Source of the DNA: Escherichia phage SmurfNell | Length of the DNA stretch: 64,000 nucleotides | Direction: 5' to 3' (one strand) | Sequence record: OR896824.1 | Shown here: piece after piece, positions 32,360 to 44,626 of the stretch | Layout: each line of letters begins with the position of its first letter | How positions within the stretch are numbered: position 1 is the first letter of the stretch | Translations under genes and position numbers: made by a program | The notes under the pieces: model-generated | Told to the model about the DNA's origin: nothing | The model's database searches: none | Seen by the model: only the letters and a program-made list of their open reading frames with translations

Positions 32360-32367
32360 AAATTCGA

Positions 32368-32396
32368 TTGCTTAAAGACTTAAATTTCTGTATAAT
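32368..32396 (+). promoter_or_regulatory. T5-type sigma70 promoter
   Basis: TTGCTT-17-TGTATAATAC plus TTTCATAAATTAATGAGAGGAAG leader. Confidence 0.65.
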
Positions 32397-32427
32397 ACTT
32401 TCATAAATTAATGAGAGGAAGCGAAAT

Positions 32428-32598
32428 ATGAAATCAGTTGTAATTATTGGTGTTAATACCCGTGGTATCCGTACTACGAAAACAGTTAAAACTACTAACG
32501 TTGCTGAAATTACTACAAACCCTAAGAAGTTTGATTTCGCCAAAGTCTCGGCAGTTATGACAGAACAATCTTTTAACCAAGCACTGGGAATTAAATAA
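32428..32598 (+). CDS. hypothetical small protein (56 aa)
   Basis: Below ORF-track cutoff; GAGAGGAAG RBS directly downstream of promoter 32368-32396. Confidence 0.45.
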   Translation: MKSVVIIGVNTRGIRTTKTVKTTNVAEITTNPKKFDFAKVSAVMTEQSFNQALGIK

Positions 32599-33041
32599 TG
32601 GAAGAAAATATTCTAAATGTTTTGCGTAGGGCTTTGCAGGAATCTAAGATTGATGGCTCTGATAAAGAGGTAGCTAAAAGCTACCAGACCATAATCGAAG
32701 ATCTTCAGCGTGTTGATAAAGACTTCATTACTTCTGAACAGTTTGTGTCTTATCTCAAAGCTCAGCTGAAAAGCATTAATCAGACGAAAGCTAAACTTCA
32801 TGGTCAAGACCTTGATAATTATAGCTTGCAGTCTGCTCAGTATGAATATATACTGAACAAATGGCTACAACAGTATCTGCCGCCTCAGCTTTCTGATTCT
32901 GAGATTCGCAAATACTTTGCAGAATTAGTTAAGTTGAACCCTGGGATTACGAAGAGTATGCTGATGAAAGCGATTAAGGAAGAATTCCCTGGTCGTTATG
33001 ACGGTGGCATCGCTGCTCAGGTTGCTGGCGAATTTAACTAA
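32598..33041 (+). CDS. hypothetical protein (147 aa)
   Basis: ORF overlapping the preceding stop (ATAATGG). Confidence 0.55.
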   Translation: MEENILNVLRRALQESKIDGSDKEVAKSYQTIIEDLQRVDKDFITSEQFVSYLKAQLKSINQTKAKLHGQDLDNYSLQSAQYEYILNKWLQQYLPPQLSDSEIRKYFAELVKLNPGITKSMLMKAIKEEFPGRYDGGIAAQVAGEFN

Positions 33042-33049
33042 AAATTGAT

Positions 33050-33078
33050 TTGCTAAACGCTTCAAAATTCTGTATAAT
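33050..33078 (+). promoter_or_regulatory. T5-type sigma70 promoter driving the ORF-free 33.1-33.9 kb region and tRNA-Arg
   Basis: TTGCTA-17-TGTATAATAG plus ATTCATAAATTAGAGAACAG leader; no ORF for about 950 nt downstream. Confidence 0.65.
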
Positions 33079-33084
33079 AGATTC

Positions 33085-33937
33085 ATAAATTAGAGAACAG
33101 CGAGCCGATTACGCTGAGTGAGTTTAGTGATTCCTACTAGGATAGCTACTCCACTGAATAGAGTCGGTGAGTTGGAGACTAGTAAGTACTCTGAGAGAGG
33201 CTACGAGCTAACGCTTATTGCTATTGATAGGGAACTGAAAATCTGCGGAAAACTCGGGAGCTGTCCCGAAATCTCGTAAACTCTTCTCTAGTTTATGTTA
33301 GTGGGGTGTCGAACTGACTTATGTGATAACACTGCCGTCCTAGTATAAACGGTAATATCAAACCGTAACTGGTGGAAGATGCAGGTTCGAATCCTGCGGT
33401 CGGAAAGAATCAGATAACTCGGGCTTATACCGGATAAGCATTCGCTGCTGTAGTACATACTATGACGGTTCAGGAGGTACGCCTCCTGATCAGTATTAGG
33501 TTAGAATCGAAACAGCTAAACCACGAGGAAACCTGACGGCCTCAACCAAACTCGGAACTCGGGATCACTGCCTAGTGTGTACCCCGTTTAACCTGAGACT
33601 AGGCATCCAGCTTCGCATCGAAAATCGGAGGTGCGATTCTAACAGACCGCGTGAATATGAGAGTGGGAAACGCTGACATGAGAGATGTCACTAATGGTGC
33701 CCAATAGTACAGGTAATTCGCGATAATTCCTGTTGAGCGGCAGCAGTAGGCTGGGAGTCATGACCTAAGCCTAACCGAGTTCTTCACATACGGAGAACAT
33801 AACCACAAAGTCACCCTGACTTAAACTGGAAGATATTGTCTGACGGAAGGGCTGCAGAGCTTAATCTGAGGGGGCTGACCCTACCTACCGTCGGGTATCT
33901 TTAAGAGCTTTTATAAGAGTTCTTAAAAATACCTAAA
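33085..33937 (+). other. ORF-free transcribed region (putative ncRNA / tRNA precursor leader) containing a degenerate tRNA-like element
   Basis: About 850 nt downstream of promoter 33050-33078 with no ORF of 60 aa or more on either strand; ends at tRNA-Arg(TCT); contains several hairpins (e.g. CAGGAGG-TACG-CCTCCTG at 33487-33504). Confidence 0.35.
33346..33417 (+). other. degenerate tRNA-like element (canonical T-arm, 8-nt putative anticodon loop, imperfect acceptor stem)
   Basis: GCAGG-TTCGAAT-CCTGC T-arm and ACGGT/ACCGT hairpin with 8-nt loop; acceptor pairing has a U-U mismatch and no CCA. Confidence 0.25.
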
Positions 33938-34012
33938 CGGGGTGTAGTCTAAGGGATAGGCAGGAGTCTTCTAAATTCCTTTATGCAGGTTCGAATCCTG
34001 TCACCTCGGCCA
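33938..34012 (+). tRNA. tRNA-Arg (anticodon TCT)
   Basis: Hand-folded cloverleaf: acceptor CGGGGTG/CACCTCG, anticodon loop CTTCTAA, T-loop TTCGAAT, encoded CCA. Confidence 0.7.
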
Positions 34013-34038
34013 ATTTTATTAACTGCTAGGAAAATAAA

Positions 34039-34239
34039 GTGAAAACACGATATATAGTAAAAGTAGTAGGTGAACATTCACAAGTAAATACCACCGATGT
34101 TACAGCGCTAGCATTTGAAGTAGTCTCCGGTATAGTCATATTTCATAACGGAGATATCAAAGCTCCTGAATTTGCTGTGGATGCTAGCCTGTTTATTTCT
34201 GCAACTAAAGTAACTGTAGTAGCTAACCCTTCTAAATAA
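34039..34239 (+). CDS. hypothetical protein (66 aa, GTG start)
   Basis: ORF immediately after tRNA-Arg with AGGAAA RBS. Confidence 0.4.
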   Translation: MKTRYIVKVVGEHSQVNTTDVTALAFEVVSGIVIFHNGDIKAPEFAVDASLFISATKVTVVANPSK

Positions 34240-34250
34240 TAAGGAAATAT

Positions 34251-35195
34251 ATGTTTACTAAAAACACTAAAGAACTGACTTCCGATCAAAAAGTAATTCG
34301 TACTATTAAACGTTGGGGCGTTGGTGCTGTAGTTGGTCTTGGCGCTCTTATTCTGGCTCTCAATTCCTATACAGTTGTTCAGGACGGTACGGTTAAAACT
34401 CAGACTTTCCTGGGTAAAGTTAGTCCTAATCCTGTATTGCCGGGGTTCCATATTGTCAACCCATTCGCCTCTTTTGATACTTTTAGTACGAAAGATATTT
34501 CTATGAAACTGGATAAACTTCAGGTTCCTAGCCAGGATAAGTTTAAGTCCACTGTTGACATTACCGTTATGTTGCAGTTTGATGGTGCTAAAGCTCCTAT
34601 GAACCGTGTTAACGCAGGTACTCAGGATCAAGCTCTGAACAAGTACGTTGAAGAGAAGATGCTATCTACGATTCGTGAGTTTGGTAAGTCTGTACCAAAA
34701 GCACAAGATCTGTTCGACGCTAAGATTCAGGCTCAACTGCAAACTGCTATTCAGCAAGAAGTAGAAGAGTACGCGCGTCCTTATGGTTACACGGTTAAGC
34801 AAGTATTCCTTCAGGATATTACTCTGCCACCTGTAATCATGGAACAGGTACAAAACACAAAAGTTCGTGAAGAACAAGTTAACGCCGCTAAAGCTGAATT
34901 GGCTCGTGTTGAACAAGAAGCACAGCAGAAAGTTAAGCAAGCTGAAGCTGATCGTTCTGCTCGTGAAAACATGGCAGTAGCTAACGAACGTGACGCAGAT
35001 GCTAAACTGTACGCAGCTAAGAAAGAAGCTGAAGCTAACGCCGCGCTGCAACGTACCATTACTCCTGAAATGATTCGTTGGAAGCAGCTGGAAGTTGAAA
35101 TGCTTCGTGCTGAAAAATACCAAGGTGGTGTACCGCAGACTATTGTTGGTACTGGCTACGATGGTCAAATGATCATGGATATGCGTAACAAGTAA
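34251..35195 (+). CDS. SPFH/band-7 (prohibitin/HflKC-like) membrane protein
   Basis: N-terminal transmembrane helix (WGVGAVVGLGALILAL) followed by an SPFH-like domain and a long coiled coil; terminator at 35219-35260. Confidence 0.65.
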   Translation: MFTKNTKELTSDQKVIRTIKRWGVGAVVGLGALILALNSYTVVQDGTVKTQTFLGKVSPNPVLPGFHIVNPFASFDTFSTKDISMKLDKLQVPSQDKFKSTVDITVMLQFDGAKAPMNRVNAGTQDQALNKYVEEKMLSTIREFGKSVPKAQDLFDAKIQAQLQTAIQQEVEEYARPYGYTVKQVFLQDITLPPVIMEQVQNTKVREEQVNAAKAELARVEQEAQQKVKQAEADRSARENMAVANERDADAKLYAAKKEAEANAALQRTITPEMIRWKQLEVEMLRAEKYQGGVPQTIVGTGYDGQMIMDMRNK

Positions 35196-35218
35196 TAGTT
35201 ACACGTAATCTTCGAACC

Positions 35219-35260
35219 AAGCCCGCGTTTCCTCCGAGAGCGCGGGCTTTTCTGTATTTA
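35219..35260 (+). terminator. rho-independent terminator downstream of the SPFH gene
   Basis: AAGCCCGCG...CGCGGGCTT stem followed by TTCTGTATTT. Confidence 0.6.
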
Positions 35261-35407
35261 AGGCAAAAGAAAAGCCCATAAGTTATTCAACTAAGGTCTT
35301 TAGTATTTAATTCTTTAATTCTTTAGAATCATATACTATTATTGTAGCAACAACGTGCTACCACTAAATGCCTTGAGATTTTTCCACTAAAAAGTTTAAA
35401 AATTCGA

Positions 35408-35436
35408 TTGCTTGAACGCTAAATTCTCTGTATAAT
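35408..35436 (+). promoter_or_regulatory. T5-type sigma70 promoter upstream of nadR-pnuC
   Basis: TTGCTT-17-TGTATAATAT plus ATTTATAAATTTGAGAGAGGAATCAAAT leader. Confidence 0.7.
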
Positions 35437-35466
35437 ATATTTATAAATTTGAGAGAGGAATCAAAT

Positions 35467-36522
35467 ATGATTAAGACTGGTCTAGTAATTGGTAAGTTCG
35501 CGCCATTAACGCGTGGTCATATTAACCTAATAAACACAGCAGCAACTATGTGTGAACGAGTTATTGTTGTAGTTAGTCATGATAATCGTTGGCTGGATAA
35601 GCAGAACACACGTGATCAGGAAGTATTACAGTTAAAGAATCGACTTCGTTGGTTAGAACAAACTTACGCGGATATTGAGCACATTTCGGTAGAGTACATT
35701 ATTGAAGATGATATTCCTGAATATCCGAATGGTTGGCCGGAATATGCTAGAATCCTTAATGAAAATTACGGACATTTGCCTGAGATCACCGTTTTCTCTA
35801 GCGAACTAGACTATGATGCAGAATATAAGAAATATCTGCCGAAGTTTGGTCATTATATTGTAGATTCTGATCGGACTCGTGTTCCAATCTCAGCTACAAT
35901 GATTCGTAATGATCTTATGAAGTATTGGGAGTTTCTTCCTAGCGTAGTTCGTAAAGATTACGTGCGTAAGGTTGTAATCATTGGGACTGAAAGCTCGGGA
36001 AAGACTACTTTAACAAAATACCTTGCGAAGCTATACAACACTTCGTGGGTAGAAGAATATGGCCGAACGTATTGTGAAGTTGATCTAGTTGGTAACGAAA
36101 ATCTACTTATCAGTGAAGATTACAGTAAAATTGCGTTCAGACACAAAGAGCTAGAGTTTGAGGCAGAACGTACTGCAAATAAGATCATGTTTGTAGACAC
36201 AAATGCTTTTATTACTGAGTTCTACCACAGACTTTATGAACATCGTAAGAATCCTGTGGTTACAGCAATTGCAAAAGAAGAACATTACGATTTAGTAATT
36301 GTTCTAGCGCCTACTGTTAAGTGGGTAGATGATGGTTTACGTATTAACTCCGATCGTTCAATTACTTCTGAACTGTTCGAGCAGATGAAGAAAGAATTTC
36401 CAAATCAGTTCCCTGAAGGGCGTACTGTTTACATCGACTCCCCGGACTACAAAGTTCGTATGGACGAAGCAGTAAACGCAGTAGACTGGCTGATTCATCA
36501 CTTTAACGTTGGAGAGTTTTAA
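35467..36522 (+). CDS. nadR: NadR-like bifunctional NMN adenylyltransferase / ribosylnicotinamide kinase
   Basis: Cytidylyltransferase (H/T)xGH motif region (GKFAPLTRGHINLI) followed by a P-loop kinase domain (VVIIGTESSGKTTL); start 35467 after GAGAGAGGAA RBS. Confidence 0.75.
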   Translation: MIKTGLVIGKFAPLTRGHINLINTAATMCERVIVVVSHDNRWLDKQNTRDQEVLQLKNRLRWLEQTYADIEHISVEYIIEDDIPEYPNGWPEYARILNENYGHLPEITVFSSELDYDAEYKKYLPKFGHYIVDSDRTRVPISATMIRNDLMKYWEFLPSVVRKDYVRKVVIIGTESSGKTTLTKYLAKLYNTSWVEEYGRTYCEVDLVGNENLLISEDYSKIAFRHKELEFEAERTANKIMFVDTNAFITEFYHRLYEHRKNPVVTAIAKEEHYDLVIVLAPTVKWVDDGLRINSDRSITSELFEQMKKEFPNQFPEGRTVYIDSPDYKVRMDEAVNAVDWLIHHFNVGEF

Positions 36523-36523
36523 T

Positions 36524-37201
36524 ATGACTAACTATCTTGTAAATGACTTTAAAAACTGGAAACCTTTGGAATATCTGTGGCTGTTTATAGCAGTCGCCTT
36601 TATTAGTTTAGCAAACTATAATGGTACAGCTCTAGATTGGGCTACTGCAATAACCAATGTGGTTTGTGTTATTCTGGTTGCAAAAGGACGTGTTTCCAAC
36701 TATATTTGGGGCTTAGTGGGTGTTCTTACATATGGTATTACAGCTTTAAACGCAGATCTTTATGGTAACGCTGCACTAAACCTGCTATACTACGTTCCTA
36801 TGCAGTTTTATGGAATGTACTTATGGCATAAAAATAAGCCAAGTAATCTGCCAGATGTTCCAACTAAGTTTCTGACTAAAGCCCAAGCTCTGCTGACTCT
36901 AGGGATTCTAGCAGTAGCCACGTTAGGGTATGGTAGTTTCTTAGCTACTACAGCTGATCCATTCCCAATGCTCGATGCATTTACTGCGGTTGGTAGTGTG
37001 ATCGCTATGTGGCTTATGGTTAAGCAGTATGCCGAGCAGTGGCTGATCTGGATTGCTATTAACATTGGTACTGTGTACATTTGGCTTGTAACTGCTCAAT
37101 CTACAGGTGCATCTTATGCAATCCTAGCAATGTGGCTAGTATTCTTAGGTAACTCTATTATGGGAGCCTATAAAGGATACTTTGTACGCGTTAACAAATA
37201 A
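36524..37201 (+). CDS. pnuC: PnuC-like nicotinamide riboside transporter
   Basis: About 225-aa polytopic membrane protein with Trp/Tyr-rich motifs (NYIWGLVGVLTYG, LYYVPMQFYGMYLW) typical of PnuC; overlaps nadR stop. Confidence 0.7.
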   Translation: MTNYLVNDFKNWKPLEYLWLFIAVAFISLANYNGTALDWATAITNVVCVILVAKGRVSNYIWGLVGVLTYGITALNADLYGNAALNLLYYVPMQFYGMYLWHKNKPSNLPDVPTKFLTKAQALLTLGILAVATLGYGSFLATTADPFPMLDAFTAVGSVIAMWLMVKQYAEQWLIWIAINIGTVYIWLVTAQSTGASYAILAMWLVFLGNSIMGAYKGYFVRVNK

Positions 37202-37207
37202 AGTAGT

Positions 37208-37236
37208 TATAGCCCTCGCTTAGAGGGCTATTATAC
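37208..37236 (+). terminator. putative terminator downstream of pnuC
   Basis: TAGCCCTC-GCTTA-GAGGGCTA hairpin followed by a weak T-run. Confidence 0.4.
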
Positions 37237-37248
37237 AGAAATTTTCAC

Positions 37249-37277
37249 TTGCTTAATATAGAAAATTTCTGTATAAT
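37249..37277 (+). promoter_or_regulatory. T5-type sigma70 promoter
   Basis: TTGCTT-17-TGTATAATAT plus ATTTATAAATTCGAGAGAGGAATCAAAC leader. Confidence 0.7.
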
Positions 37278-37307
37278 ATATTTATAAATTCGAGAGAGGA
37301 ATCAAAC

Positions 37308-37604
37308 ATGAAACGCATTGTACTTGCATTGACTCTAGTATCTACTTCTGTATTTGCTGCTCCGCAACAGGAACTTTGTCAAGTTCAGGTTTGTAATAAG
37401 CTAGAACGATTTACTCTAAACATTTGGTCCCATATTAAAGATAATATGGGTGAACAGTGTTTTGATATTGTTCTGCCAAAAGAACAGGCTATTCCTGGTG
37501 CTGTTCTTAGCTCAGAATCACGTTGGTGGCAGGGTTCTTCTATCAATCCAACTAAGAAGTCAGTGACACGTATCAAACAAGTATATCAGTGCAAGGTTCA
37601 GTAA
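37308..37604 (+). CDS. secreted hypothetical protein (98 aa)
   Basis: Signal peptide MKRIVLALTLVSTSVFAAP; downstream of promoter 37249-37277. Confidence 0.55.
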   Translation: MKRIVLALTLVSTSVFAAPQQELCQVQVCNKLERFTLNIWSHIKDNMGEQCFDIVLPKEQAIPGAVLSSESRWWQGSSINPTKKSVTRIKQVYQCKVQ

Positions 37605-37612
37605 AATTTCAC

Positions 37613-37641
37613 TTGCTTAATGTCGAAATTTTCTGTATAAT
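37613..37641 (+). promoter_or_regulatory. T5-type sigma70 promoter driving the first tRNA block
   Basis: TTGCTT-17-TGTATAATAT; tRNA-Ser starts 15 nt after the -10. Confidence 0.65.
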
Positions 37642-37655
37642 ATATTCATAAATTC

Positions 37656-37749
37656 GGAAGATTAACCCTAATGGTAAGGGAGCTGTTTGCTAAACAGCCA
37701 GTAGCTGTGGAGACACGGTGTGCCAGTTCGAATCTGGCATCTTCCTCCA
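37656..37749 (+). tRNA. tRNA-Ser (anticodon GCT), type II
   Basis: Acceptor GGAAGAT/ATCTTCC, anticodon stem-loop GCTGT-TTGCTAA-ACAGC, long variable arm, T-arm GCCAG-TTCGAAT-CTGGC, CCA. Confidence 0.7.
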
Positions 37750-37754
37750 GATTT

Positions 37755-37832
37755 GGTTCTCAAGCTCATTTGGTATGAGCCGTCGCCTCATAAGCGAAAG
37801 GTAGGTAGGTTCGAATCCTCCGGGAGCCACCA
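37755..37832 (+). tRNA. tRNA with CAT anticodon (Met or Ile2)
   Basis: Acceptor GGTTCTC/GGGAGCC with G-U pairs, D-stem GCTC/GAGC, anticodon loop CTCATAA, CCA; one mismatch in T-stem. Confidence 0.55.
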
Positions 37833-37849
37833 ATTAATTAGGAGACTAT

Positions 37850-38035
37850 ATGTCACGCTTTCGAGAAATTGCTCAAGAGCTAGAAGAATGTGCCTGCCCA
37901 AAATGCTTCGGAGCAGGTGAATGGAACGATGCTGAACCTGGTGATACATGGTATAATACATACGTTTGTACACATTGTAATAGTTCTGGTATTAATCCTG
38001 AATGCGGTATTTCTCTAGATATTGAGCGAGGCTAA
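37850..38035 (+). CDS. small Cys-rich zinc-ribbon protein (61 aa)
   Basis: CxxC...CxxC (CACPKCFGAG...CTHCNSSG); GGAG RBS. Confidence 0.5.
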   Translation: MSRFREIAQELEECACPKCFGAGEWNDAEPGDTWYNTYVCTHCNSSGINPECGISLDIERG

Positions 38036-38369
38036 GATGGATATCTACACTACACCAGCAGTAAACCTGATTGGCTCTTGCCTTGTGCATTTCCGCTTCT
38101 TCCAAACGGATGATAGCAAAGAGGAGTATACCTATCCTCTGATGGATTTTCAGATTGAGGACTTCTTCCGTGAAGTGCGTAATATCTCTGAGAACTTCTA
38201 TTATGGCATGGATAAGGAAGACTTTGACATTAAGTTCCCTATAATCTCTCGTTATTTCCTAGAGCAGTCCGATGCTCGGTTTGAGAAGATTGAACACATG
38301 GAAGTAGCCTGGGCTATCCAGTTCGAAATTACTGGCTTTGCTCGATACATTCAAGGTTACGAACTATGA
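38022..38369 (+). CDS. hypothetical protein (115 aa)
   Basis: ORF overlapping the upstream gene. Confidence 0.5.
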   Translation: MSEAKMDIYTTPAVNLIGSCLVHFRFFQTDDSKEEYTYPLMDFQIEDFFREVRNISENFYYGMDKEDFDIKFPIISRYFLEQSDARFEKIEHMEVAWAIQFEITGFARYIQGYEL

Positions 38370-38461
38370 AATTAAAAGATTATTATATTGGTTGGTTTGT
38401 AGGACTAATAGTAGGATTTTCACTGGGCTACAACTTGTATCAACTGATAAACTGATTACAT

Positions 38462-38538
38462 GGGGGTGTAATCGAATTGGCATAGGTACTGGACTTAAAA
38501 TTCAGGTTTTGTGGGTTCGAATCCCACCACCCCTACCA
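38462..38538 (+). tRNA. tRNA with TAA anticodon (Leu-type) but short variable loop
   Basis: Acceptor GGGGGTG/CACCCCT, anticodon stem-loop CTGGA-CTTAAAA-TTCAG, T-arm GTGGG-TTCGAAT-CCCAC, A73, CCA; D-arm pairing weak. Confidence 0.5.
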
Positions 38539-38554
38539 AATTAAGGAAATAAAA

Positions 38555-38677
38555 ATGAAAGCTATTAAGAAAGCACTACGTAAATTTATGTACTGTCGTT
38601 TTCATAGCATCAAGTCTTCGACTAATGGTACGACTTATGATCGCTATGATCCTAAGTTTGGCTTACATTCTAAATAA
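38555..38677 (+). CDS. hypothetical small protein (40 aa)
   Basis: Short ORF with AAGGAAAT RBS right after tRNA 38462-38538. Confidence 0.3.
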   Translation: MKAIKKALRKFMYCRFHSIKSSTNGTTYDRYDPKFGLHSK

Positions 38678-38690
38678 CTGGAGAAAACAA

Positions 38691-38897
38691 ATGGCTAATC
38701 CTGAAATTACAGCACAACGCTTTATGCTGAAAGGAATTATTGCTGAAGCAGGCATGACAGAAGAAGTTGCAGATTTTCAAAAGCAATTCCTCAATATTCT
38801 CACTCAAGCCAAAGAGCTAGGAGAGAAAGAACATGACGCAGCTGTTATGGCAATCACGTTGGTTGGGCTTGATCTGGCAGAAGAATCAGGAGTTTAA
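38691..38897 (+). CDS. hypothetical protein (68 aa)
   Basis: ATG 38691 with GGAG RBS; the ORF-track start 38625 gives an unlikely hydrophobic extension. Confidence 0.45.
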   Translation: MANPEITAQRFMLKGIIAEAGMTEEVADFQKQFLNILTQAKELGEKEHDAAVMAITLVGLDLAEESGV

Positions 38898-38926
38898 CTC
38901 CTCCAAGCAGAAATTTTAAAAATGTA

Positions 38927-38956
38927 CTTGCTTTTTACTTAAGATTTCTGCTATAA
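38927..38956 (+). promoter_or_regulatory. T5-type sigma70 promoter
   Basis: TTGCTT-18-TGCTATAATAG plus TTATATAAATTGATGAAGGAG leader. Confidence 0.6.
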
Positions 38957-38987
38957 TAGTTATATAAATTGATGAAGGAGTTAACGA

Positions 38988-39263
38988 ATGTCAAAACGTG
39001 TTACTGCAACTGGTGTTGAAAGTGCTGTTTGTAAATCCTGGGGTGGCTGGGAAGGTGAGATTGAATGGCTTTATTTCTACGACGTAGAACTTCTGCCGGA
39101 AGTCAAAGCTAAATGTGTGGAAGCCGGTATGGCTCCTGATGCAAAGGCTGATATCGAAATCACCATGCCTAAGCTAGAAGGTCGTGTAATTACGCTCAAT
39201 GATGATTATGAAGAAGTGTTCGAGCTTCCCTTCAAACTGAGTGTCACTCCTAGCTTCGAGTAA
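38988..39263 (+). CDS. hypothetical protein (91 aa)
   Basis: Downstream of promoter 38927-38956; GAAGGAG RBS. Confidence 0.55.
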   Translation: MSKRVTATGVESAVCKSWGGWEGEIEWLYFYDVELLPEVKAKCVEAGMAPDAKADIEITMPKLEGRVITLNDDYEEVFELPFKLSVTPSFE

Positions 39264-39299
39264 CTGATATAGCACTGAGCAAGTTCTTTAAAATTTGAC

Positions 39300-39328
39300 T
39301 TGCTCAGTCCTTCAAATCTTGATATAAT
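39300..39328 (+). promoter_or_regulatory. T5-type sigma70 promoter upstream of the tRNA-Tyr block
   Basis: TTGACTTGCTC ... GATATAATAG; -35 either TTGACT or TTGCTC at 17-nt spacing. Confidence 0.55.
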
Positions 39329-39391
39329 AGTTATCTAATTTGGAAACATATTTAAAAGTGTTTAAACTAGTATTTGAATATTTCTAAATAT

Positions 39392-39482
39392 GTTGGATTA
39401 GTATCGTAGAGGTAGCGAAGCAGACTGTAAATCTGCCGACTCGGAAGGGTCTCGGGTGGTTCGACTCCATCATCCAACACCA
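39392..39482 (+). tRNA. tRNA-Tyr (anticodon GTA), type II
   Basis: Anticodon arm GCAGACTGTAAATCTGC identical to E. coli tRNA-Tyr as recalled; perfect acceptor GTTGGAT/ATCCAAC; long variable arm; CCA. Confidence 0.8.
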
Positions 39483-39489
39483 AATTTAA

Positions 39490-39566
39490 GTCCTGTTAGA
39501 CAAACTGGTAAAGTCACTACCCTTTCAAGGTAGGATTTGCGGGTTCGATCCCCGCACAGGACGCCA
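39490..39566 (+). tRNA. tRNA-Glu (anticodon TTC)
   Basis: Acceptor GTCCTGT/ACAGGAC, anticodon stem-loop CTACC-CTTTCAA-GGTAG, T-arm GCGGG-TTCGATC-CCCGC, CCA. Confidence 0.75.
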
Positions 39567-39573
39567 ATTTCTG

Positions 39574-39651
39574 CATTCCTAGAGTGTTACTGGACAGCAT
39601 GTCGGTCTCCAAAACCGTACGGTCTAGGTTCGAGTCCTAGTAGGTTTGCCA
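39574..39651 (+). tRNA. candidate tRNA-Trp (anticodon CCA); acceptor stem imperfect
   Basis: T-arm CTAGG-TTCGAGT-CCTAG and anticodon hairpin CGGT-CTCCAAA-ACCG are clear, but 5'/3' acceptor pairing has two U-U mismatches. Confidence 0.3.
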
Positions 39652-39657
39652 ATATTT

Positions 39658-39732
39658 GCGACTTTAGCTGAGATGGATTAGCGTCTCCCTGAAAAGGAGA
39701 AGAGGTACGATCGTTACGTACAGGTTGCACCA
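39658..39732 (+). tRNA. tRNA-Phe (anticodon GAA)
   Basis: Acceptor GCGACTT/AGGTTGC, anticodon stem-loop TCTCC-CTGAAAA-GGAGA, CCA; unusual T-loop ATCGTTA. Confidence 0.65.
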
Positions 39733-39749
39733 ATTTGAAGGAGATGCTG

Positions 39750-40022
39750 ATGCATCCTGAAAACTTCTTTATTTACTGTGCGGATAAGTCATTAAAACGC
39801 AGAATTAACAAAGTCTACCATTATCGTGCTAGTCAACAGCCTTATGTTTATGCTTTTGATGGAGAAACCATTCCACTAAAGCAGTTGGCATGTGATTACA
39901 TGGTCTTGAAGAACTTTGATGAGACAAAGATCTCAAGCGTTCATAATCGACAGAATCCATTAACGTGGAAGTATAAGAAGAAAAAGAAAGGCATCAAATT
40001 TCTGAAAAATGTAGTTGCTTAA
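39750..40022 (+). CDS. hypothetical protein (about 90 aa)
   Basis: ORF after tRNA-Phe; AAGGAG RBS. Confidence 0.45.
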   Translation: MHPENFFIYCADKSLKRRINKVYHYRASQQPYVYAFDGETIPLKQLACDYMVLKNFDETKISSVHNRQNPLTWKYKKKKKGIKFLKNVVA

Positions 40023-40043
40023 ATCCTTAAAGTTCTGTATAAT
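40015..40043 (+). promoter_or_regulatory. T5-type sigma70 promoter
   Basis: TTGCTT-17-TGTATAATTA plus TTACATAAATTGAACTGGAG leader. Confidence 0.6.
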
Positions 40044-40072
40044 TATTACATAAATTGAACTGGAGAAGCAAC

Positions 40073-40297
40073 ATGACAGAACAAGAATTAAAAGAACGTA
40101 AGCTGGTAATGCTTCGCTTACTAAACATTTTCTCTGGTATGGATGGTGGTATTGACTTCGTTCAACTACGCACTTTTGTAGAAGAAGCTGAAGGCGAATC
40201 TATTACTAAAATCCTTAAACATATGGGTTTATTACTAGACGCTGCTAATGTAGCTACTGAATATAAATTAGAAGATCTACCGGAGCGTGTTTCATGA
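40073..40297 (+). CDS. hypothetical protein (74 aa)
   Basis: Downstream of promoter 40015-40043; CTGGAGAAG RBS. Confidence 0.5.
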   Translation: MTEQELKERKLVMLRLLNIFSGMDGGIDFVQLRTFVEEAEGESITKILKHMGLLLDAANVATEYKLEDLPERVS

Positions 40298-40485
40298 AAA
40301 TGTTAGTTAAATTTAAGTGTTGTGGTTCTGAACATATTTTCACTCGTTATAGAGAGTTTAAGATGTGTGAGTGTGGTAAGTCAGGCTATGATGCTGGAGA
40401 TGGCTATTATGCTAGATCTATAGGACATTCTAAAGATCTAGAGTTTACTAATCTCGAAAAGCAAGATAAATCGACCGTTGGCTGA
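40294..40485 (+). CDS. small Cys-rich protein (63 aa)
   Basis: CCGSEH...CECGKSG zinc-ribbon-like; overlaps previous stop; 3' end overlaps tRNA-Cys by 14 nt. Confidence 0.45.
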   Translation: MKMLVKFKCCGSEHIFTRYREFKMCECGKSGYDAGDGYYARSIGHSKDLEFTNLEKQDKSTVG

Positions 40486-40547
40486 ATGGCTTAGGCGGAG
40501 GCCTGCAAAACCTCCTTATGTGAGTTCGAATCTCATGCGGTCGTCCA
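40472..40547 (+). tRNA. tRNA-Cys (anticodon GCA)
   Basis: Acceptor CGACCGT/GCGGTCG, anticodon loop CTGCAAA, U73 discriminator as in bacterial tRNA-Cys, CCA. Confidence 0.65.
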
Positions 40548-40554
40548 AATTTTA

Positions 40555-40637
40555 GGGTCGTTAGCCAAGCGGTTTGGCGGTGGACTGTTAATCCATGTCG
40601 AAAGACAACGTAGGTTCGAATCCTACACGGCCCGCCA
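40555..40637 (+). tRNA. tRNA with GTT anticodon (Asn-type) carrying a 13-nt variable arm
   Basis: Acceptor GGGTCGT/ACGGCCC, D-arm GCCA-AGCGGTT-TGGC, anticodon stem-loop GTGGA-CTGTTAA-TCCAT, variable arm GTCGAAAGACAAC, T-arm GTAGG-TTCGAAT-CCTAC, CCA. Confidence 0.6.
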
Positions 40638-40739
40638 TATTCTGTGTAGAGTTAAGTAAACCGGTAGCCAACCAGCTATCATTACTGATATTGAATTCAG
40701 TCACAGATACCATTTTCATTAATAACTGAGGAAATAGAT

Positions 40740-40925
40740 ATGACAACTCGTGCAATTGCTCGACTAGAAGCTGATCGTGATAGTCTGATTAATAATATTA
40801 AGGTTTGGGATCAAGAAATTGAAAACCAAAAACTGACATTAATTCAAGATATGCAGCAACAGAATGCCCGTCGTGAAGCTCTAAAAGAGGTTGAGGAAGC
40901 TATCGAAAAACTCAAAACTGAGTAA
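40740..40925 (+). CDS. hypothetical coiled-coil protein (61 aa)
   Basis: ORF with GAGGAAA RBS between tRNA genes. Confidence 0.45.
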   Translation: MTTRAIARLEADRDSLINNIKVWDQEIENQKLTLIQDMQQQNARREALKEVEEAIEKLKTE

Positions 40926-40933
40926 ATAAATTA

Positions 40934-41010
40934 TGCGATCGGGGCTGGCTTGGTAATGGTACTCCCCTGTCACGGGAGAAAATGTGGGTTCGAATCCCAT
41001 CGGTCGCGCC
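40934..41010 (+). tRNA. tRNA-Asp (anticodon GTC)
   Basis: Acceptor GCGATCG/CGGTCGC, anticodon stem-loop CTCCC-CTGTCAC-GGGAG, T-loop TTCGAAT, G73, CCA. Confidence 0.7.
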
Positions 41011-41087
41011 AATTTTTGCAGGACGCTGGTATAGATAACCACCGCGTGGGAAGTGTCTATATTTAGAGCACTGCAAAACATAATAAT

Positions 41088-41163
41088 ACATCCATAGCTC
41101 AATGGTTAGAGCTACCGCCTCTTAAGCGGAGGGTTCTAGGTTCAAGTCCTAGTGGGTGTACCA
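41088..41163 (+). tRNA. tRNA-Lys (anticodon CTT)
   Basis: Acceptor ACATCCA/TGGGTGT, D-arm GCTC-AATGGTTA-GAGC, anticodon loop CTCTTAA, T-arm CTAGG-TTCAAGT-CCTAG, CCA. Confidence 0.65.
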
Positions 41164-41169
41164 AACATC

Positions 41170-41370
41170 AGAGTAGCGTGATGTACTGCAAAGACCCAAA
41201 GTCCGGGGTGGACTTCTTGATTCAAAGGAGCAGGCATTAATTATCATTCTAGCGTGGTGGAGAGGGGACACCAGCTTGCCGAGGGTAGAAGCTCGTTCGA
41301 TTCGAGTGAAAGAATGGTTCTCGTAAATCCGCACAAGTGATAGCAGGTTCAAGTCCTGCCTAGATTGACT
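41170..41370 (+). other. unresolved tRNA-like / structured RNA region between tRNA-Lys(CTT) and tRNA-Gly(GCC)
   Basis: Contains two T-arm-like hairpins (CTCG-TTCGATT-CGAG; GCAGG-TTCAAGT-CCTGC) and a TGGTG...CACCA hairpin, but no cloverleaf could be folded by hand. Confidence 0.3.
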
Positions 41371-41376
41371 TATTAT

Positions 41377-41450
41377 GCGTTCGTAGTTAAAAGGTATAAT
41401 TTTTGGTTGCCAACCAGAAGTTGAGGGTTCGATTCCCTCCGACCGCACCA
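41377..41450 (+). tRNA. tRNA-Gly (anticodon GCC)
   Basis: Acceptor GCGTTCG/CGACCGC (one U-C mismatch), anticodon stem-loop TTTGG-TTGCCAA-CCAGA, T-arm GAGGG-TTCGATT-CCCTC, CCA. Confidence 0.65.
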
Positions 41451-41698
41451 AATTTAGGTTTCTGCTTCCTAGAGAACTGACGCCTAGATAAACAAGGCGA
41501 TGAGTTTCCGGCCGGTTCTAGTCGCTGAAAATCCTCCCGACCAGGTAGGTGTAAGTAAACGAAAGTTTACTTATTAAGTAAGTCCGACACATCGGCGGGT
41601 GTGTTCTAGTACTTAAAGAAGGTCTCGCAAACTTTCTCGCTAGCATGAGTTGATAGCTCGGTGACTTACCTAATAAGTAAATTTATTAAAAAATGTAG

Positions 41699-41727
41699 TT
41701 GCTATTTAGCTTAATTCTCTGTATAAT
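41699..41727 (+). promoter_or_regulatory. T5-type sigma70 promoter upstream of the tRNA-Pro block
   Basis: TTGCTA-17-TGTATAATAT. Confidence 0.65.
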
Positions 41728-41759
41728 ATATTTTATAAAGTGAGTTAACAAAGAATATT

Positions 41760-41837
41760 CTCCGTGTAGCTCAGTTTGGCCAGAGCGTTTCGTTTGGGGC
41801 GATAGGGTCGGGGGTTCAAATCCTCCCACGGAGACCA
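41760..41837 (+). tRNA. tRNA-Pro (anticodon TGG)
   Basis: Acceptor CTCCGTG/CACGGAG, D-arm GCTC...GAGC, anticodon loop TTTGGGG, T-loop TTCAAAT, CCA; begins about 33 nt downstream of promoter -10. Confidence 0.6.
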
Positions 41838-41843
41838 AACAAT

Positions 41844-41921
41844 TGCGGGTTAGATCTCTGGTAGAGATCGCTAGTCTCATAAGCTAGAAAGAGGTAGGTT
41901 CGATTCCTGCACCCGCTTCCA
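41844..41921 (+). tRNA. tRNA with CAT anticodon (Met or Ile2), U1-U72 mismatch
   Basis: Palindromic D-stem GATC/GATC, anticodon stem-loop CTAGT-CTCATAA-GCTAG, T-loop TTCGATT, CCA; terminal acceptor pair unpaired. Confidence 0.55.
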
Positions 41922-41942
41922 ATTTAATAGAAGGATTTCTAA

Positions 41943-42107
41943 ATGAAATTGTTTCGTTTAAAAGTAAGTGATATACGTTCTAGTAAAGATCGTAAGAAGT
42001 ATCCACTAGCTCACTACGGTAAAGATGAAAACGAAGTGATGGCGGAATTTGGTATTAATCATCCTTACTTGAAAATATACTCTATCAAAGAAGTATACAT
42101 GTATTAA
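41943..42107 (+). CDS. hypothetical small protein (54 aa)
   Basis: Short ORF between two tRNAs, below track cutoff. Confidence 0.3.
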   Translation: MKLFRLKVSDIRSSKDRKKYPLAHYGKDENEVMAEFGINHPYLKIYSIKEVYMY

Positions 42108-42109
42108 AT

Positions 42110-42188
42110 AGATCGCTAGCTCAATTGGTTTAGCAGCACCCGGCTTTTAACCGGAAGGTTCTGGGTTCGAGTCCCAGGCGGTCTACCA
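42110..42188 (+). tRNA. tRNA-Lys (anticodon TTT)
   Basis: Acceptor AGATCGC/GCGGTCT, anticodon hairpin CCGG-CTTTTAA-CCGG, T-arm CTGGG-TTCGAGT-CCCAG, CCA. Confidence 0.65.
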
Positions 42189-42205
42189 ATTTAAAGGAAT
42201 TTGTT

Positions 42206-42523
42206 ATGAATATTAACAAAGTTCTAGAAACAATATCAGAAATGTCTGGTAGAGCTGGAAAACGCTTTACTGAACTATGTATTAAAAATCAAAAAATACC
42301 AGAACATCAATGTCATTATTGTCGAGACTGTGAACAATACCATGAAATGTGTGTGGTTGAAGATTGGATCTGGGATCAGATAAGAAAAGAACAATCCAAA
42401 GATATTGTTCTATGTTTTACTTGTATGGAACGACGTTTAGGACGTAAAATTACTCTTAAAGATCTTAAACATGTTCCCTGTAACGCTCCTTACTTCATTG
42501 GTTTTAGAATGGAGAGATTTTGA
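42206..42523 (+). CDS. Cys-rich putative zinc-binding protein (105 aa)
   Basis: CHYCRDCEQYHEMC...CFTCMERR; AAGGAA RBS. Confidence 0.5.
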   Translation: MNINKVLETISEMSGRAGKRFTELCIKNQKIPEHQCHYCRDCEQYHEMCVVEDWIWDQIRKEQSKDIVLCFTCMERRLGRKITLKDLKHVPCNAPYFIGFRMERF

Positions 42524-42666
42524 TGATAATCTGGTTTTACTTAATGAAACAAAAAGTCAAGCAGTACAACGTATTTTCTGCTGATTTTACTATTGGAATG
42601 TTCTTAGCAGGATTATGTGAGTTTCTGTTTGAAGCATTCTTAATCGGAAGTCTTTTGCTCGGTTAG
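42523..42666 (+). CDS. small hydrophobic protein (47 aa)
   Basis: ATGA overlap with upstream gene; predicted single TM; 3' end overlaps tRNA-Val. Confidence 0.3.
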   Translation: MIIWFYLMKQKVKQYNVFSADFTIGMFLAGLCEFLFEAFLIGSLLLG

Positions 42667-42730
42667 TTTAATGGGAGAACCCCGTCTTTACACGGCGGTT
42701 GCGATAGTTCGATTCTATCACCGAGTACCA
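42657..42730 (+). tRNA. tRNA-Val (anticodon TAC)
   Basis: Acceptor GCTCGGT/ACCGAGT, D-stem GTTT/GAAC, anticodon stem-loop CCGTC-TTTACAC-GGCGG, T-arm GATAG-TTCGATT-CTATC, CCA. Confidence 0.7.
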
Positions 42731-42749
42731 ATTAACTCAAAATAAGGAA

Positions 42750-43109
42750 TTGCAAATGCAATTATCAAGCAAGGTTCAAGGCTACTTCGGTCATGTAACA
42801 ATGGAGTTCGCTATCTCTAAAGGTTGGGACTTCGAACAAGATTTAGCTGAGTTCTACAAAGATATTGATCTGAACGTACCGTACATGGGACTCTCTACTG
42901 GTCAGGAAATCACAGAAGCCGATGTATTCAAGGCAAGTCAAGGTGAGATAACACCTAGTTTTGCCGAGTTCTGGTTAGGAATTACTCTGAAAGATGATGC
43001 ACCGGATGGTGGTGTGGTTATGCAGAGTATGCACTCTGGAAGCTCTGATTACCTTTTCGTTAGCGACGTTAAGGAAATACAAGAAATCTGCAAAAATGTA
43101 CTTGCTTGA
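42750..43109 (+). CDS. hypothetical protein (119 aa)
   Basis: ORF with AAGGAA RBS after tRNA-Val. Confidence 0.55.
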   Translation: MQMQLSSKVQGYFGHVTMEFAISKGWDFEQDLAEFYKDIDLNVPYMGLSTGQEITEADVFKASQGEITPSFAEFWLGITLKDDAPDGGVVMQSMHSGSSDYLFVSDVKEIQEICKNVLA

Positions 43110-43131
43110 TACTTAATTTCTTGTTATAATA
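43103..43131 (+). promoter_or_regulatory. T5-type sigma70 promoter upstream of an ORF-free region and the tRNA-Ala pair
   Basis: TTGCTT-17-TGTTATAATAT plus TTATATAAATTGATGAGGAG leader. Confidence 0.65.
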
Positions 43132-43392
43132 TTTATATAAATTGATGAGGAGAAATCCTCATCAAAGTTCACTAAGGTATTAGCTCGACCTAGGACTGGC
43201 TGCCAAAAAGCACGGTTGCAATTAGACCCCTAATGGCGGGGGATACTTTGCAAGAAGTTCTAGATTAGTCCACTAGATTCAGCGGCAACTGAATAGTGTA
43301 TCGGGTTTGTGAAGAGCGGTTATCCTCTACTGGCTAATGTCTGAGGGTAATACGCACGCCGAGCTAATAGCCTTAGTAAACTTAAAGATTTT

Positions 43393-43466
43393 GGGGATAT
43401 AGTTTAATGGTAGAACATCTGCTTTGCACGCAGAAGACGAGGGTTCAACTCCCCCTTTCTCCACCA
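43393..43466 (+). tRNA. tRNA-Ala (anticodon TGC)
   Basis: Anticodon arm TCTGC-TTTGCAC-GCAGA as in E. coli tRNA-Ala; G3-U70 identity pair; CCA. Confidence 0.7.
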
Positions 43467-43472
43467 AAATTT

Positions 43473-43548
43473 GGGGTCATAGGTTATTTGGTTAAACTTA
43501 CTGCCTTGCAAGCAGTGGAACTCAGTTCAATTCTGAGTGACTCCACCA
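43473..43548 (+). tRNA. tRNA-Ala (anticodon TGC), second copy
   Basis: Acceptor GGGGTCA/TGACTCC with G3-U70, D-stem GGTT/AACT, anticodon stem-loop ACTGC-CTTGCAA-GCAGT, T-arm CTCAG-TTCAATT-CTGAG, CCA. Confidence 0.65.
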
Positions 43549-43561
43549 AATTAGAGGAAGC

Positions 43562-44023
43562 ATGGCTAGAACAGATATATTGGAAAGAAAGGATGAAATT
43601 CTTCTCTGGATAGAAGAAAATCAACCCAAAGCTGAAATTGCTAGAAGATTACGCTGCAAAGTTGATACACTGAATACTTATCTGAAAAAGATGGGAATAC
43701 AATATTCAGGTAACTCTGCTAGAAAAGGTTTTATACGTTCTGAGATACAGGATGGGTATATTCCGGCAGTGAATTACTTTTACAAAAATAGCCCAATATC
43801 TTCTAGTCAGCTTAGAATAAAGATACTACGTGATGGCTTAAAACCTCACAAATGTGAAAATTGTAATTTATCTGAATGGATGGGAGTTCCAATCCCCTTA
43901 GAGTTAGAGCATAAAGATGGTGATCATTATAATAATGAGTGGGATAATTTAGCTTTATTATGTCCCAACTGTCATACACTAACAGATACACATTCAGGTA
44001 AGAATAAAGGAACATACGCGTGA
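43562..44023 (+). CDS. HNH homing endonuclease (inside tRNA cluster)
   Basis: HNH core LELEHKDGDHYNNEWDNLALLCPNCH; flanked by tRNA genes on both sides. Confidence 0.7.
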   Translation: MARTDILERKDEILLWIEENQPKAEIARRLRCKVDTLNTYLKKMGIQYSGNSARKGFIRSEIQDGYIPAVNYFYKNSPISSSQLRIKILRDGLKPHKCENCNLSEWMGVPIPLELEHKDGDHYNNEWDNLALLCPNCHTLTDTHSGKNKGTYA

Positions 44024-44094
44024 TTGATGGAATTGGCATACATACCGTCCTTAGAAGTCGGGTTTTGAGGGTTCGAATCCCTTGTCACGCACCA
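44018..44094 (+). tRNA. tRNA with TAG anticodon (Leu-type) but short variable loop
   Basis: Acceptor GCGTGAT/GTCACGC, anticodon stem-loop CCGTC-CTTAGAA-GTCGG (one U-U), T-arm GAGGG-TTCGAAT-CCCTT, CCA; overlaps the HNH stop codon. Confidence 0.45.
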
Positions 44095-44111
44095 ATTTTG
44101 TAGTAAACAAC

Positions 44112-44203
44112 GGAAGAGCAAATCGATAGGTGACGAAAACCGCTTGGAAAGTGGCTGACTTGTGAAAGCAGGCTTGAGAGTTCGAATCTCTCTTCTTCCG
44201 CCA
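44112..44203 (+). tRNA. tRNA-Ser (anticodon GGA), type II
   Basis: Acceptor GGAAGAG/TTCTTCC, anticodon hairpin CCGC-TTGGAAA-GTGG, long variable arm, T-arm GAGAG-TTCGAAT-CTCTC, G73, CCA. Confidence 0.6.
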
Positions 44204-44209
44204 AACAAT

Positions 44210-44299
44210 AGAAGATAGGACGTAGTGGTACGTAACCGGTCTTGAAAACCGGCCCGCTGTAGTGATACGGTGATGGTTCGACTCCATTATCTTCTGCCA
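44210..44299 (+). tRNA. tRNA-Ser (anticodon TGA), type II
   Basis: Perfect acceptor AGAAGAT/ATCTTCT, anticodon stem-loop CCGGT-CTTGAAA-ACCGG, long variable arm, G73, CCA. Confidence 0.75.
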
Positions 44300-44450
44300 A
44301 ATCTTGAAGTATGCCGGAATCGGTAGACGGGGCTTCCTAAAGGGCGTAAGAGGAACATCCACTCCTCATAAGATACCCGAAAACGAGGCTGAGATAAATG
44401 GTCTATCTCGTGAAGGTTCAAGTCCTTCTGCTTCTTGATATTCAATGGCT
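44300..44450 (+). other. unresolved tRNA-like element (canonical T-arm GAAGG-TTCAAGT-CCTTC, no assignable acceptor stem)
   Basis: Perfect T-arm plus upstream 6-bp hairpin GAGATA-AATGGTC-TATCTC; about 130 nt between flanking tRNAs with no ORF. Confidence 0.3.
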
Positions 44451-44519
44451 CAAAGAGTAACGGTGCACCTTTCTAGAGAATTTTCTGGGCGAGAATCCAG
44501 AAGTAATCAACTAGTTGTT

Positions 44520-44626
44520 AGTGTGATGAGTTTCGGAGAGCCGCCACAATTGAAGTCTTTAGAATGGGTATCGCCCTTTAGCCCCTCCGAAAGGGATAAC
44601 TAGAGATTTCAATTGTGGCTATATCA
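44520..44626 (+). repeat. long-range inverted repeat (GCCACAATTGAA ... TTCAATTGTGGC) enclosing a hairpin and overlapping the 5' end of tRNA-His
   Basis: 12-bp perfect inverted repeat with arms around 44548-44559 and 44609-44620; internal hairpin CCCTTT...AAAGGG. Confidence 0.45.

Follow-up and report, generated by a model that had tools for sequence, protein, structure and literature searches.

Two class I leucine tRNAs with 5-nt variable loops in the tRNA region of a T5-like phage

Outside animal mitochondria, tRNA-Leu is described as uniformly long-armed in reviews and in recent structural work, one such paper dating from 2025 (PMC9976931, PMC12360207, PMC7609411). Escherichia phage SmurfNell (OR896824.1) carries two tRNA genes with leucine anticodons and variable loops of only 5 nt, which raises the question of whether these are genuine leucine tRNAs and, if so, how they are charged and why the arm is missing. 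The window, by which we mean the whole 64,000-nt stretch of this record that was analysed, holds the tRNA region of a T5-like phage (Demerecviridae), with the Salmonella phages OSY-STA, EH2 and Stitch as its nearest relatives (approx. 95% identity). ARAGORN finds 30 tRNA genes in it, all on the + strand and spanning 33938-46248, and the following two are the full tRNA-Leu set among them:

38462-38538, + strand: tRNA-Leu(UAA), 77 nt, class I, with G1:U72, A73 and an encoded CCA (ARAGORN, Rfam, covariation)
38474-38484, + strand: D loop GAATTGGCATA of tRNA-Leu(UAA), read from the sequence and of the host tRNA-Leu type
38496-38498, + strand: anticodon TAA of tRNA-Leu(UAA) (ARAGORN)
38506-38510, + strand: variable loop GTTTT of tRNA-Leu(UAA), 5 nt (ARAGORN)
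44018-44094, + strand: tRNA-Leu(UAG), 77 nt, class I, with A73 and an encoded CCA (ARAGORN, Rfam, covariation)
44030-44040, + strand: D loop GAATTGGCATA of tRNA-Leu(UAG), identical to that of tRNA-Leu(UAA)
44052-44054, + strand: anticodon TAG of tRNA-Leu(UAG) (ARAGORN)
44062-44066, + strand: variable loop GTTTT of tRNA-Leu(UAG), 5 nt (ARAGORN)

The ARAGORN structure strings give both genes the same plan: 7-bp acceptor, 3-bp D, 5-bp anticodon and 5-bp T stems, with an 11-nt D loop, a 7-nt anticodon loop and a 5-nt variable loop (GUUUU). The anticodon stem of tRNA-Leu(UAG) contains a U30/U40 mismatch. Both genes pass the gathering score of 29 for the Rfam tRNA family RF00005, with 57.4 bits for tRNA-Leu(UAA) and 47.5 bits for tRNA-Leu(UAG). 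A class II tRNA has a variable arm of at least 10 nt that forms a stem-loop, and the 5-nt GUUUU of these genes places them outside that class; in structure they are type I tRNA-Leu (a leucine anticodon with a 4-5-nt variable loop), while their function as tRNA-Leu is deduced from the tRNA body of phage OSYSP discussed below. Long arms are retained in the three tRNA-Ser (90-94 nt) and the tRNA-Tyr (91 nt) of the window (ARAGORN). Copies at least 95% identical are already annotated as tRNA-Leu in hundreds of T5-like genomes, and some depositors have labelled these genes tRNA-OTHER or tRNA-Xle.

A sequence-only reading had placed UAA and UAG tRNAs with 5-nt variable loops at exactly these coordinates, and the ARAGORN calls agree. 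It had offered two explanations: that the anticodon was misplaced, for example through a shifted anticodon stem, or that the phage carries class I tRNAs with leucine anticodons. Automated folding assigns the same UAA and UAG, not other anticodons. To examine the fold beyond single sequences, we aligned 14 homologues from five phage lineages, all of them 77-78-nt tRNA-Leu(UAA or UAG): Demerecviridae of Vibrio and Proteus, Ounavirinae (FO1a, SUSP1), Vequintavirinae (PVP-SE1, an Avunavirus), Schitoviridae (Pseudomonas phage ZC03) and Lahexavirus (Aeromonas phage LAh_6). The cloverleaf with a 5-nt variable loop is paired in 97.9% of cells, 16 of its 20 pairs have changed on both sides, and covariation is strong in each of the four helices. 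None of 500 shuffles matched this covariation, and when partners were slid by 1-3 columns as a control, pairing reached only 41-52%. U33, the anticodon, the T loop, A73 and CCA are invariant in all 14 homologues. Because covariation supports this fold, the anticodon is placed correctly; two tRNA finders and covariation together rule out a shifted anticodon or a wrong fold, and both genes are confirmed as real class I leucine tRNAs, the second of the two explanations.

The D arm of these tRNAs is the one that marks tRNA-Leu in the host. E. coli leuZ (UAA) and leuW (UAG), the long-armed tRNA-Leu of T5 and both phage genes have in common an unusual D arm with a 3-bp stem and a purine13/A22 mismatch, together with A73 and U48; the UAA isoacceptors of host and phage also have G1:U72 in common. 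In both phage genes the mismatch is G13/A22 and the loop reads GAAUUGGYAUA, numbered in tRNA-Leu(UAA) as G13, A14, A15, U16, U17, G18, G19, C20, A20a, U and A22. The D loop is of the GAAUYGGUAGA type in leuZ and leuW (GAATYGGTAGA) and is GAAUUGGCAUA in the phage. These positions matter for charging. E. coli LeuRS reads A73 and a tertiary elbow made up of U8:A14, A15:U48, G18G19, A20a and the pairs that join the D loop to the T loop, with the anticodon and the long arm dispensable (PMC9976931), and a minimal tRNA-Leu without variable and anticodon arms is still charged by it, according to Larkin et al. 2002 as cited in PMC9976931. Both phage genes contain U8:A14, A15:U48, G18G19 and A20a, and their T loop, TTCGAAT, can form G18:U55, G19:C56 and U54:A58. 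Across the 14 homologues A73, A14, G18G19, A20a, A22 and U48 are invariant, and A15 is found in 13. To judge from these positions, both genes keep the full E. coli LeuRS identity set; the A73 that the earlier reading had reported for the UAA gene, proposing that identity elements be inspected, is present in both. Position 3:70 is G:C in both genes.

One position in the anticodon loop differs from the host. The loop of tRNA-Leu(UAG), CUUAGAA (window 44050-44056), has A37, and that of host leuW, UUUAGGU, has G37, the m1G37 position in CUN-reading tRNA-Leu. A37 recurs in 13 of the 14 short-arm homologues and in the T5 long-armed allele, the exception being the Vibrio phage JSF10 gene with U37. 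With A37, the phage tRNA-Leu(UAG) would be independent of TrmD at this position.

The published view of charging is less permissive. E. coli LeuRS is said to be an enzyme that 'only charges type II tRNALeu' and to fail on the type I tRNA-Leu(CAA) of Streptomyces coelicolor; its leucine-specific domain prefers a large variable loop, and a crystal structure shows LeuRS touching arm nucleotides 47f-47i (PMC6614811). Human mitochondrial LeuRS was the sole LeuRS then reported to charge a type I tRNA-Leu (PMC6614811). Given this domain preference and these contacts, charging of the phage tRNAs may be less efficient than that of host tRNA-Leu. The failure on the Streptomyces tRNA may be explained by its different identity set (C74, not A73).

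Experimental support for the use of such a body by E. coli comes from recoded strains. In Syn61 derivatives, serT was replaced by an anticodon-swapped 'bacteriophage-derived (GenBank MF402939.1) tRNA-Leu(CGA)'; this tRNA reads TCG as leucine in E. coli (PMC13596443, a 2026 preprint), although the mass spectrometry in that study does not separate Leu from Ile. The decoding of TCG as leucine was first reported by Nyerges et al. 2023, as cited in PMC13596443. MF402939.1 is Escherichia phage OSYSP, a Tequintavirus. Scanning its whole genome, we found just two tRNA-Leu genes, both of 77 nt: L001:7023-7099 is 100% identical to tRNA-Leu(UAA) of the window and L001:12621-12697 is 100% identical to tRNA-Leu(UAG). 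Since OSYSP has only these two, each the same as one window gene, the body used in E. coli must be identical to one or the other, and a tRNA body of this kind is thus reported to be charged and used on E. coli ribosomes.

We then asked what the cognate codons mean in the phage. Four conserved phage enzymes, NrdA, NrdB, ThyA and NrdD, were aligned to their E. coli K-12 orthologues (33-53% identity). Phage CTA codons (n = 32) stand opposite Leu in 56% of cases and opposite I/V/M/F in 31%; for TTA (n = 31) the proportions are 42% and 32%. The phage's other four leucine codons stand opposite Leu in 41-54% of cases, and non-leucine codons in 5.7%. CTA and TTA align with leucine just as the remaining leucine codons do, so both mean leucine, with no recoding. 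Their usage is high: the window ORFs contain 15.7 CTA and 17.6 TTA per 1000 codons (phage GC content 40%), whereas the four E. coli orthologues contain 1.4 and 2.4 per 1000. The link to rare host codons that had been suggested from the sequence fits these figures. Codon supply as the selective benefit is correlative, and in one mycobacteriophage codon frequency was no different with and without a phage tRNA for the codon (PMC10264068). With the LeuRS identity set intact, CTA and TTA meaning leucine and the OSYSP body reported to insert leucine, the class I body does not imply unusual charging.

Two readings would deny these tRNAs an ordinary role in leucine decoding. On one, the cloverleaf is mistaken, or the sequences are decayed tRNA genes or tRNA-like decoys that stand outside translation. 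The single-sequence minimum free energy (MFE) folds of the two bare gene sequences are not cloverleaves (z-scores -1.2 and -1.4), and the T5 region has several annotated 'tRNA-like stable RNAs with unknown functions'; an MFE failure says little, being common among unmodified AT-rich tRNAs, and the agreement of two independent tRNA finders, the four-helix covariation around invariant functional positions, the preservation of both genes across hundreds of genomes and the reported decoding by the OSYSP body on ribosomes make this reading scarcely conceivable. On the other, a synthetase other than LeuRS charges the class I UAG or UAA tRNA, and CUA or UUA is read as another amino acid. Mitochondria provide precedents, as in some yeasts a class I tRNA(UAG) has reassigned CUN to Thr through an 8-nt anticodon loop (yeast tRNA-Thr(UAG)) or to Ala through G3:U70 (Ashbya tRNA-Ala(UAG)) (PMC7609411), and the uncertain depositor labels and the natural type I tRNA-Leu that E. 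coli LeuRS does not charge (PMC6614811) point the same way. Against this, the phage genes have a 7-nt loop, G3:C70 (G3:U70 occurs in just three of 253 relatives) and the D arm, A73 and A15:U48 signature of tRNA-Leu; their codons lie opposite leucine and other hydrophobic residues, as other leucine codons do; and the identical body is reported to insert Leu (or Ile) in E. coli. We consider recoding or mischarging very improbable, and the data indicate neither a new genetic code nor a new kind of molecule.

Elsewhere in the array, tRNA-Asn(GUU) (40555-40637, + strand, 83 nt) is anomalous in the opposite direction, a class I isotype whose variable arm is extended: its variable region of 12-13 nt, GTCGAAAGACAAC, could fold as a hairpin of 3 bp (GTC/GAC) around a GAAA loop. 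The same 83-nt gene is found in OSYSP (L001:9128-9210), and the T5 gene is 78 nt long. tRNA-Lys(UUU) (42110-42188, + strand, 79 nt) has its anticodon at position 37, with an enlarged D region, and is a tRNA-Lys of the T5-family type. A borderline Rfam tRNA match at 33334-33405 on the + strand (29.3 bits, gathering score 29) has no ARAGORN call and may be one of the annotated tRNA-like stable RNAs of T5.

The leucine loci are polymorphic within the T5 family. In the window, tRNA-Leu(UAG) occupies the slot Ala, Leu(UAG), Ser(GGA), Ser(UGA), and the same slot in T5 holds tRNA-Leu1(UAG) (NC_005859.1, 31624-31708), a long-armed gene of 85 nt with a 13-nt variable region. It is the only leucine gene that ARAGORN finds in the T5 tRNA region (28000-40500), where there is no Leu(UAA), and a curated note in NC_005859.1 records that replacing its anticodon yields an amber suppressor. 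At 95% identity or more, the T5-type long Leu(UAG) is present in about 52 phage records, the short Leu(UAG) of the window type in about 161 and the short Leu(UAA) in about 324, so that at this locus the short UAG allele outnumbers the T5 long allele by roughly three to one. The short UAA gene and the long UAG gene occur together in at least one phage, ESCO30. Since their stems differ, the short and long UAG genes are best read as the outcome of allele replacement, not of recent deletion, and nowhere in the survey did a short gene have a near-identical, truly long (11 nt or more) partner. These two counts rule out that the T5 long allele simply lost its arm. Close T5-like relatives on the same hosts carry either form, natural evidence that one and the same LeuRS accepts both. 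An origin in the E. coli host or a prophage was also considered and is ruled out by the lack of any blastn match in 5,426 E. coli genomes.

The neighbourhood of the UAG gene offers a possible route for such replacement:

43562-44023, + strand: 153-aa ORF between tRNA-Ala and tRNA-Leu(UAG), with a marginal HNH endonuclease match

The match to PF01844 (HNH) scores 21.7 bits against a cut-off of 21.4, with a weak helix-turn-helix-like match at the N-terminus, and the ORF's TGA stop (44021-44023) falls within the first 6 nt of tRNA-Leu(UAG). In T5, tRNA-Ala stands directly next to tRNA-Leu, whose other flank holds an HNH gene, hegC. This arrangement suggests that homing endonucleases may shuffle tRNA alleles in the T5-family tRNA region.

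To see how common short-armed phage tRNA-Leu are, we searched with a structural pattern consisting of the leucine D loop followed by CTTARAA, a 5-nt variable loop and the T stem. Only 32 stretches matched in 596 Gb of bacterial and archaeal genomes, compared with at least 120 in a far smaller viral collection. Nearly all of the cellular matches lie in multi-tRNA clusters (as many as 28 tRNAs within a few kb), with a lone tRNA at two loci; many are on metagenome-assembled genome (MAG) contigs and several come from Flavobacteriaceae isolates. The pattern-selected set, 152 loci among the matches listed, contains 253 short and 49 long tRNA-Leu, as against one short and 151 long tRNA-Ser and seven short and 78 long tRNA-Tyr. 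Between them, its short-armed leucine genes have all six leucine anticodons, and the discriminator is A in 252 of the 252 that are readable, compared with 57% in other tRNAs.

A less biased sample was then drawn with a generic T-arm/CCA anchor, comprising 630 tRNAs on 119 viral contigs. Here 27 tRNA-Leu were short (36%) and 48 long, or 19 and 40 when genes carrying the anchor are set aside, and no short genes were seen among 46 tRNA-Ser and 17 tRNA-Tyr. All 27 short tRNA-Leu have A73. An independent check set of 126 short leucine genes from both samples, not chosen by the search pattern, has A73 in 99%, A15:U48 in 97% and both together in 96%; the two occur together in 94% of long-armed tRNA-Leu from the same contigs and in 18% of non-leucine short tRNAs. 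Roughly a third of phage tRNA-Leu genes thus lack the arm, in a small sample to which host genes at prophage edges may have contributed, and the survey suggests that phages of many host phyla commonly have short-armed tRNA-Leu in their tRNA clusters. The earlier description of such tRNAs as unusual therefore stands in comparison with cellular tRNAs and does not hold among phages.

Several loci from this survey are worth recording. One viral contig (IMG/VR 3300035181_001045, L246, 234,659 bp) has five short-armed tRNA-Leu (74-78 nt) with anticodons UAA, UAG, CAG, GAG and CAA, nearly a full class I leucine decoding set. In a tRNA-Leu(CAA) lineage on viral contigs (L162 and L156 versus L165, L056 and L158), bodies that are 86-91% identical have variable regions of 6, 8 or 9 nt, and variable-region length thus appears to be still shifting through small indels in some phage lineages. 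Dense tRNA arrays on Phocaeicola MAG contigs include suppressor-like CUA and UCA tRNAs that ARAGORN labels Pyl and SeC (L019 334-408; L032 334-408 and 1742-1815) as well as short-armed tRNA-Leu; they are probably stop-codon-recoded phage contigs binned into a MAG. On a Rhodocyclaceae MAG contig (L017 7722-7803), in an 18-tRNA array, ARAGORN calls a tRNA with a 4-base anticodon (caaa) that adjoins one long-armed and one short-armed tRNA-Leu and could be a frameshift-suppressor-like tRNA or a misfold.

Taken together, both genes very probably encode functional leucine tRNAs with the arm reduced to a 5-nt loop, charged by the host LeuRS and supplying UUA and CUA decoding. Structure, conservation, identity elements, the leucine meaning of the codons and the distribution across phages were observed here, and leucine insertion by the OSYSP body comes from the literature; for charging kinetics and the selective reason for arm loss, we infer. 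Apart from the shortened arm, their body is laid out as in bacterial tRNA-Leu. Host LeuRS would charge both, as the enterobacterial enzyme is taken to recognise A73 and the D/T-loop elbow and to read neither anticodon nor variable arm. tRNA-Leu(UAA) would decode UUA (and UUG) and tRNA-Leu(UAG) would decode CUA and possibly other CUN codons. Since UUA and CUA are used heavily by the AT-rich phage and are rare in the host, the phage tRNAs would add to, or buffer, the host tRNA-Leu pool in infection. Only SerRS and bacterial TyrRS use the long arm for recognition (PMC9976931, PMC7954030), so the arm could be lost from tRNA-Leu and not from tRNA-Ser or tRNA-Tyr, and synthetase use of the arm accounts for its loss in Leu only with no further assumptions.

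A further reading extends this explanation without replacing it: the arm was lost, or the short allele acquired, as an anti-defence adaptation, allowing phage copies to escape nucleases that recognise or cut the type II variable arm and to survive when host tRNA-Leu is destroyed. There is a precedent. Host tRNA-Tyr is cleaved in the stem of its variable arm by retron-Eco7 and Septu, which T5 tRNA-Tyr escapes via a divergent variable loop (PMC13096335). T5-family tRNAs are known as counter-defence factors more generally, with virally encoded tRNA-Lys reported to neutralise PARIS, and in Salmonella at least one tRNase encoded by a prophage acts on tRNA-Leu (PMC11610961). A counter-defence tRNA should depart from its host counterpart where a defence nuclease recognises it; compared with host tRNA-Leu, the phage genes lack the arm and have different anticodon loops. 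The threefold excess of the short allele would suit such selection, and the ORF with a marginal HNH match abutting tRNA-Leu(UAG) would fit allele turnover by homing. Yet there is no known nuclease that cuts bacterial tRNA-Leu in its variable arm, and the site of the Gifsy-1 terminase is described in the anticodon region (PMC11610961). Bacterial Schlafen was considered as a type II-specific tRNase and set aside, as the paper on it reports no such specificity. The tRNA-Ser and tRNA-Tyr of the same phages keep their arms, a pattern that the synthetase requirement explains fully. We regard the anti-defence reading as unlikely. It is similarly doubtful that arm loss is a widespread, selected counter-defence trait in tRNAs still charged because bacterial LeuRS ignores the arm. 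If it were, this would explain why approximately a third of phage tRNA-Leu and almost no tRNA-Ser or tRNA-Tyr are class I, and the statement that E. coli-type LeuRS charges only type II tRNA-Leu would be wrong for natural substrates.

Some of this was already known, as the genes have long been annotated and one has been used experimentally. In the open-access literature, to which our search was confined (subscription-only papers, including the 1980s sequencing of T5 tRNAs, lay outside it), we found no earlier description of short-armed phage tRNA-Leu, nor a statement of their class I status, the full LeuRS set, the coexisting long allele or their prevalence in phages. Class I phage tRNA-Leu that are predicted to work in E. 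coli and Salmonella contrast with published statements about the long arm (PMC9976931, PMC12360207, PMC7609411, PMC6614811). For LeuRS recognition rules, the phage genes are ready natural substrates for kinetics and structures; for tRNA annotation, they illustrate how conflicts between class and isotype produce labels such as 'tRNA-OTHER' or 'tRNA-Xle'; and for synthetic biology, an identical tRNA body lies behind a published leucine-swapped genetic firewall. They also bear on why phages carry tRNAs, since variable arms are now known targets of cutting by defence nucleases, and most of the interest hinges on arm loss being adaptive.

Among known systems, E. coli leuZ and leuW share with the phage tRNAs their anticodons, D-arm architecture, A73, U48 and, in the UAA gene, G1:U72. 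The host genes differ in having variable arms of 15 and 13 nt and lengths of 85-87 nt, against 5 nt and 77 nt in the phage, and in their acceptor, anticodon and T stems. T5 tRNA-Leu1(UAG) resembles the window gene in phage family, anticodon, syntenic slot, leucine-type D loop and A73, and differs in being a class II tRNA of 85 nt with different stems. T5 tRNA-Tyr, from the same phage family, also has a variable arm that departs from the host's, but that arm is still long and altered in sequence, and the tRNA has been demonstrated to resist retron-Eco7. The S. coelicolor type I tRNA-Leu(CAA) likewise has a 5-nt variable loop and is leucylated by a bacterial LeuRS, in its own case; unlike the phage tRNAs, it is a chromosomal actinomycete gene, has C74 identity and is not charged by E. 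coli LeuRS (PMC6614811). Animal mitochondrial tRNA-Leu(UUR) is class I with A14 and A73 as determinants (PMC9976931), but is organellar, structurally floppy and served by a dedicated mitochondrial LeuRS, whereas the phage tRNAs have a canonical elbow (G18G19 and a TTCGA T loop). The engineered minimalist E. coli tRNA-Leu, which E. coli LeuRS charges provided that A73 and the tertiary contacts of the D and T arms remain (Larkin et al. 2002, cited in PMC9976931), is a laboratory construct, and the phage genes are its natural, widespread counterparts.
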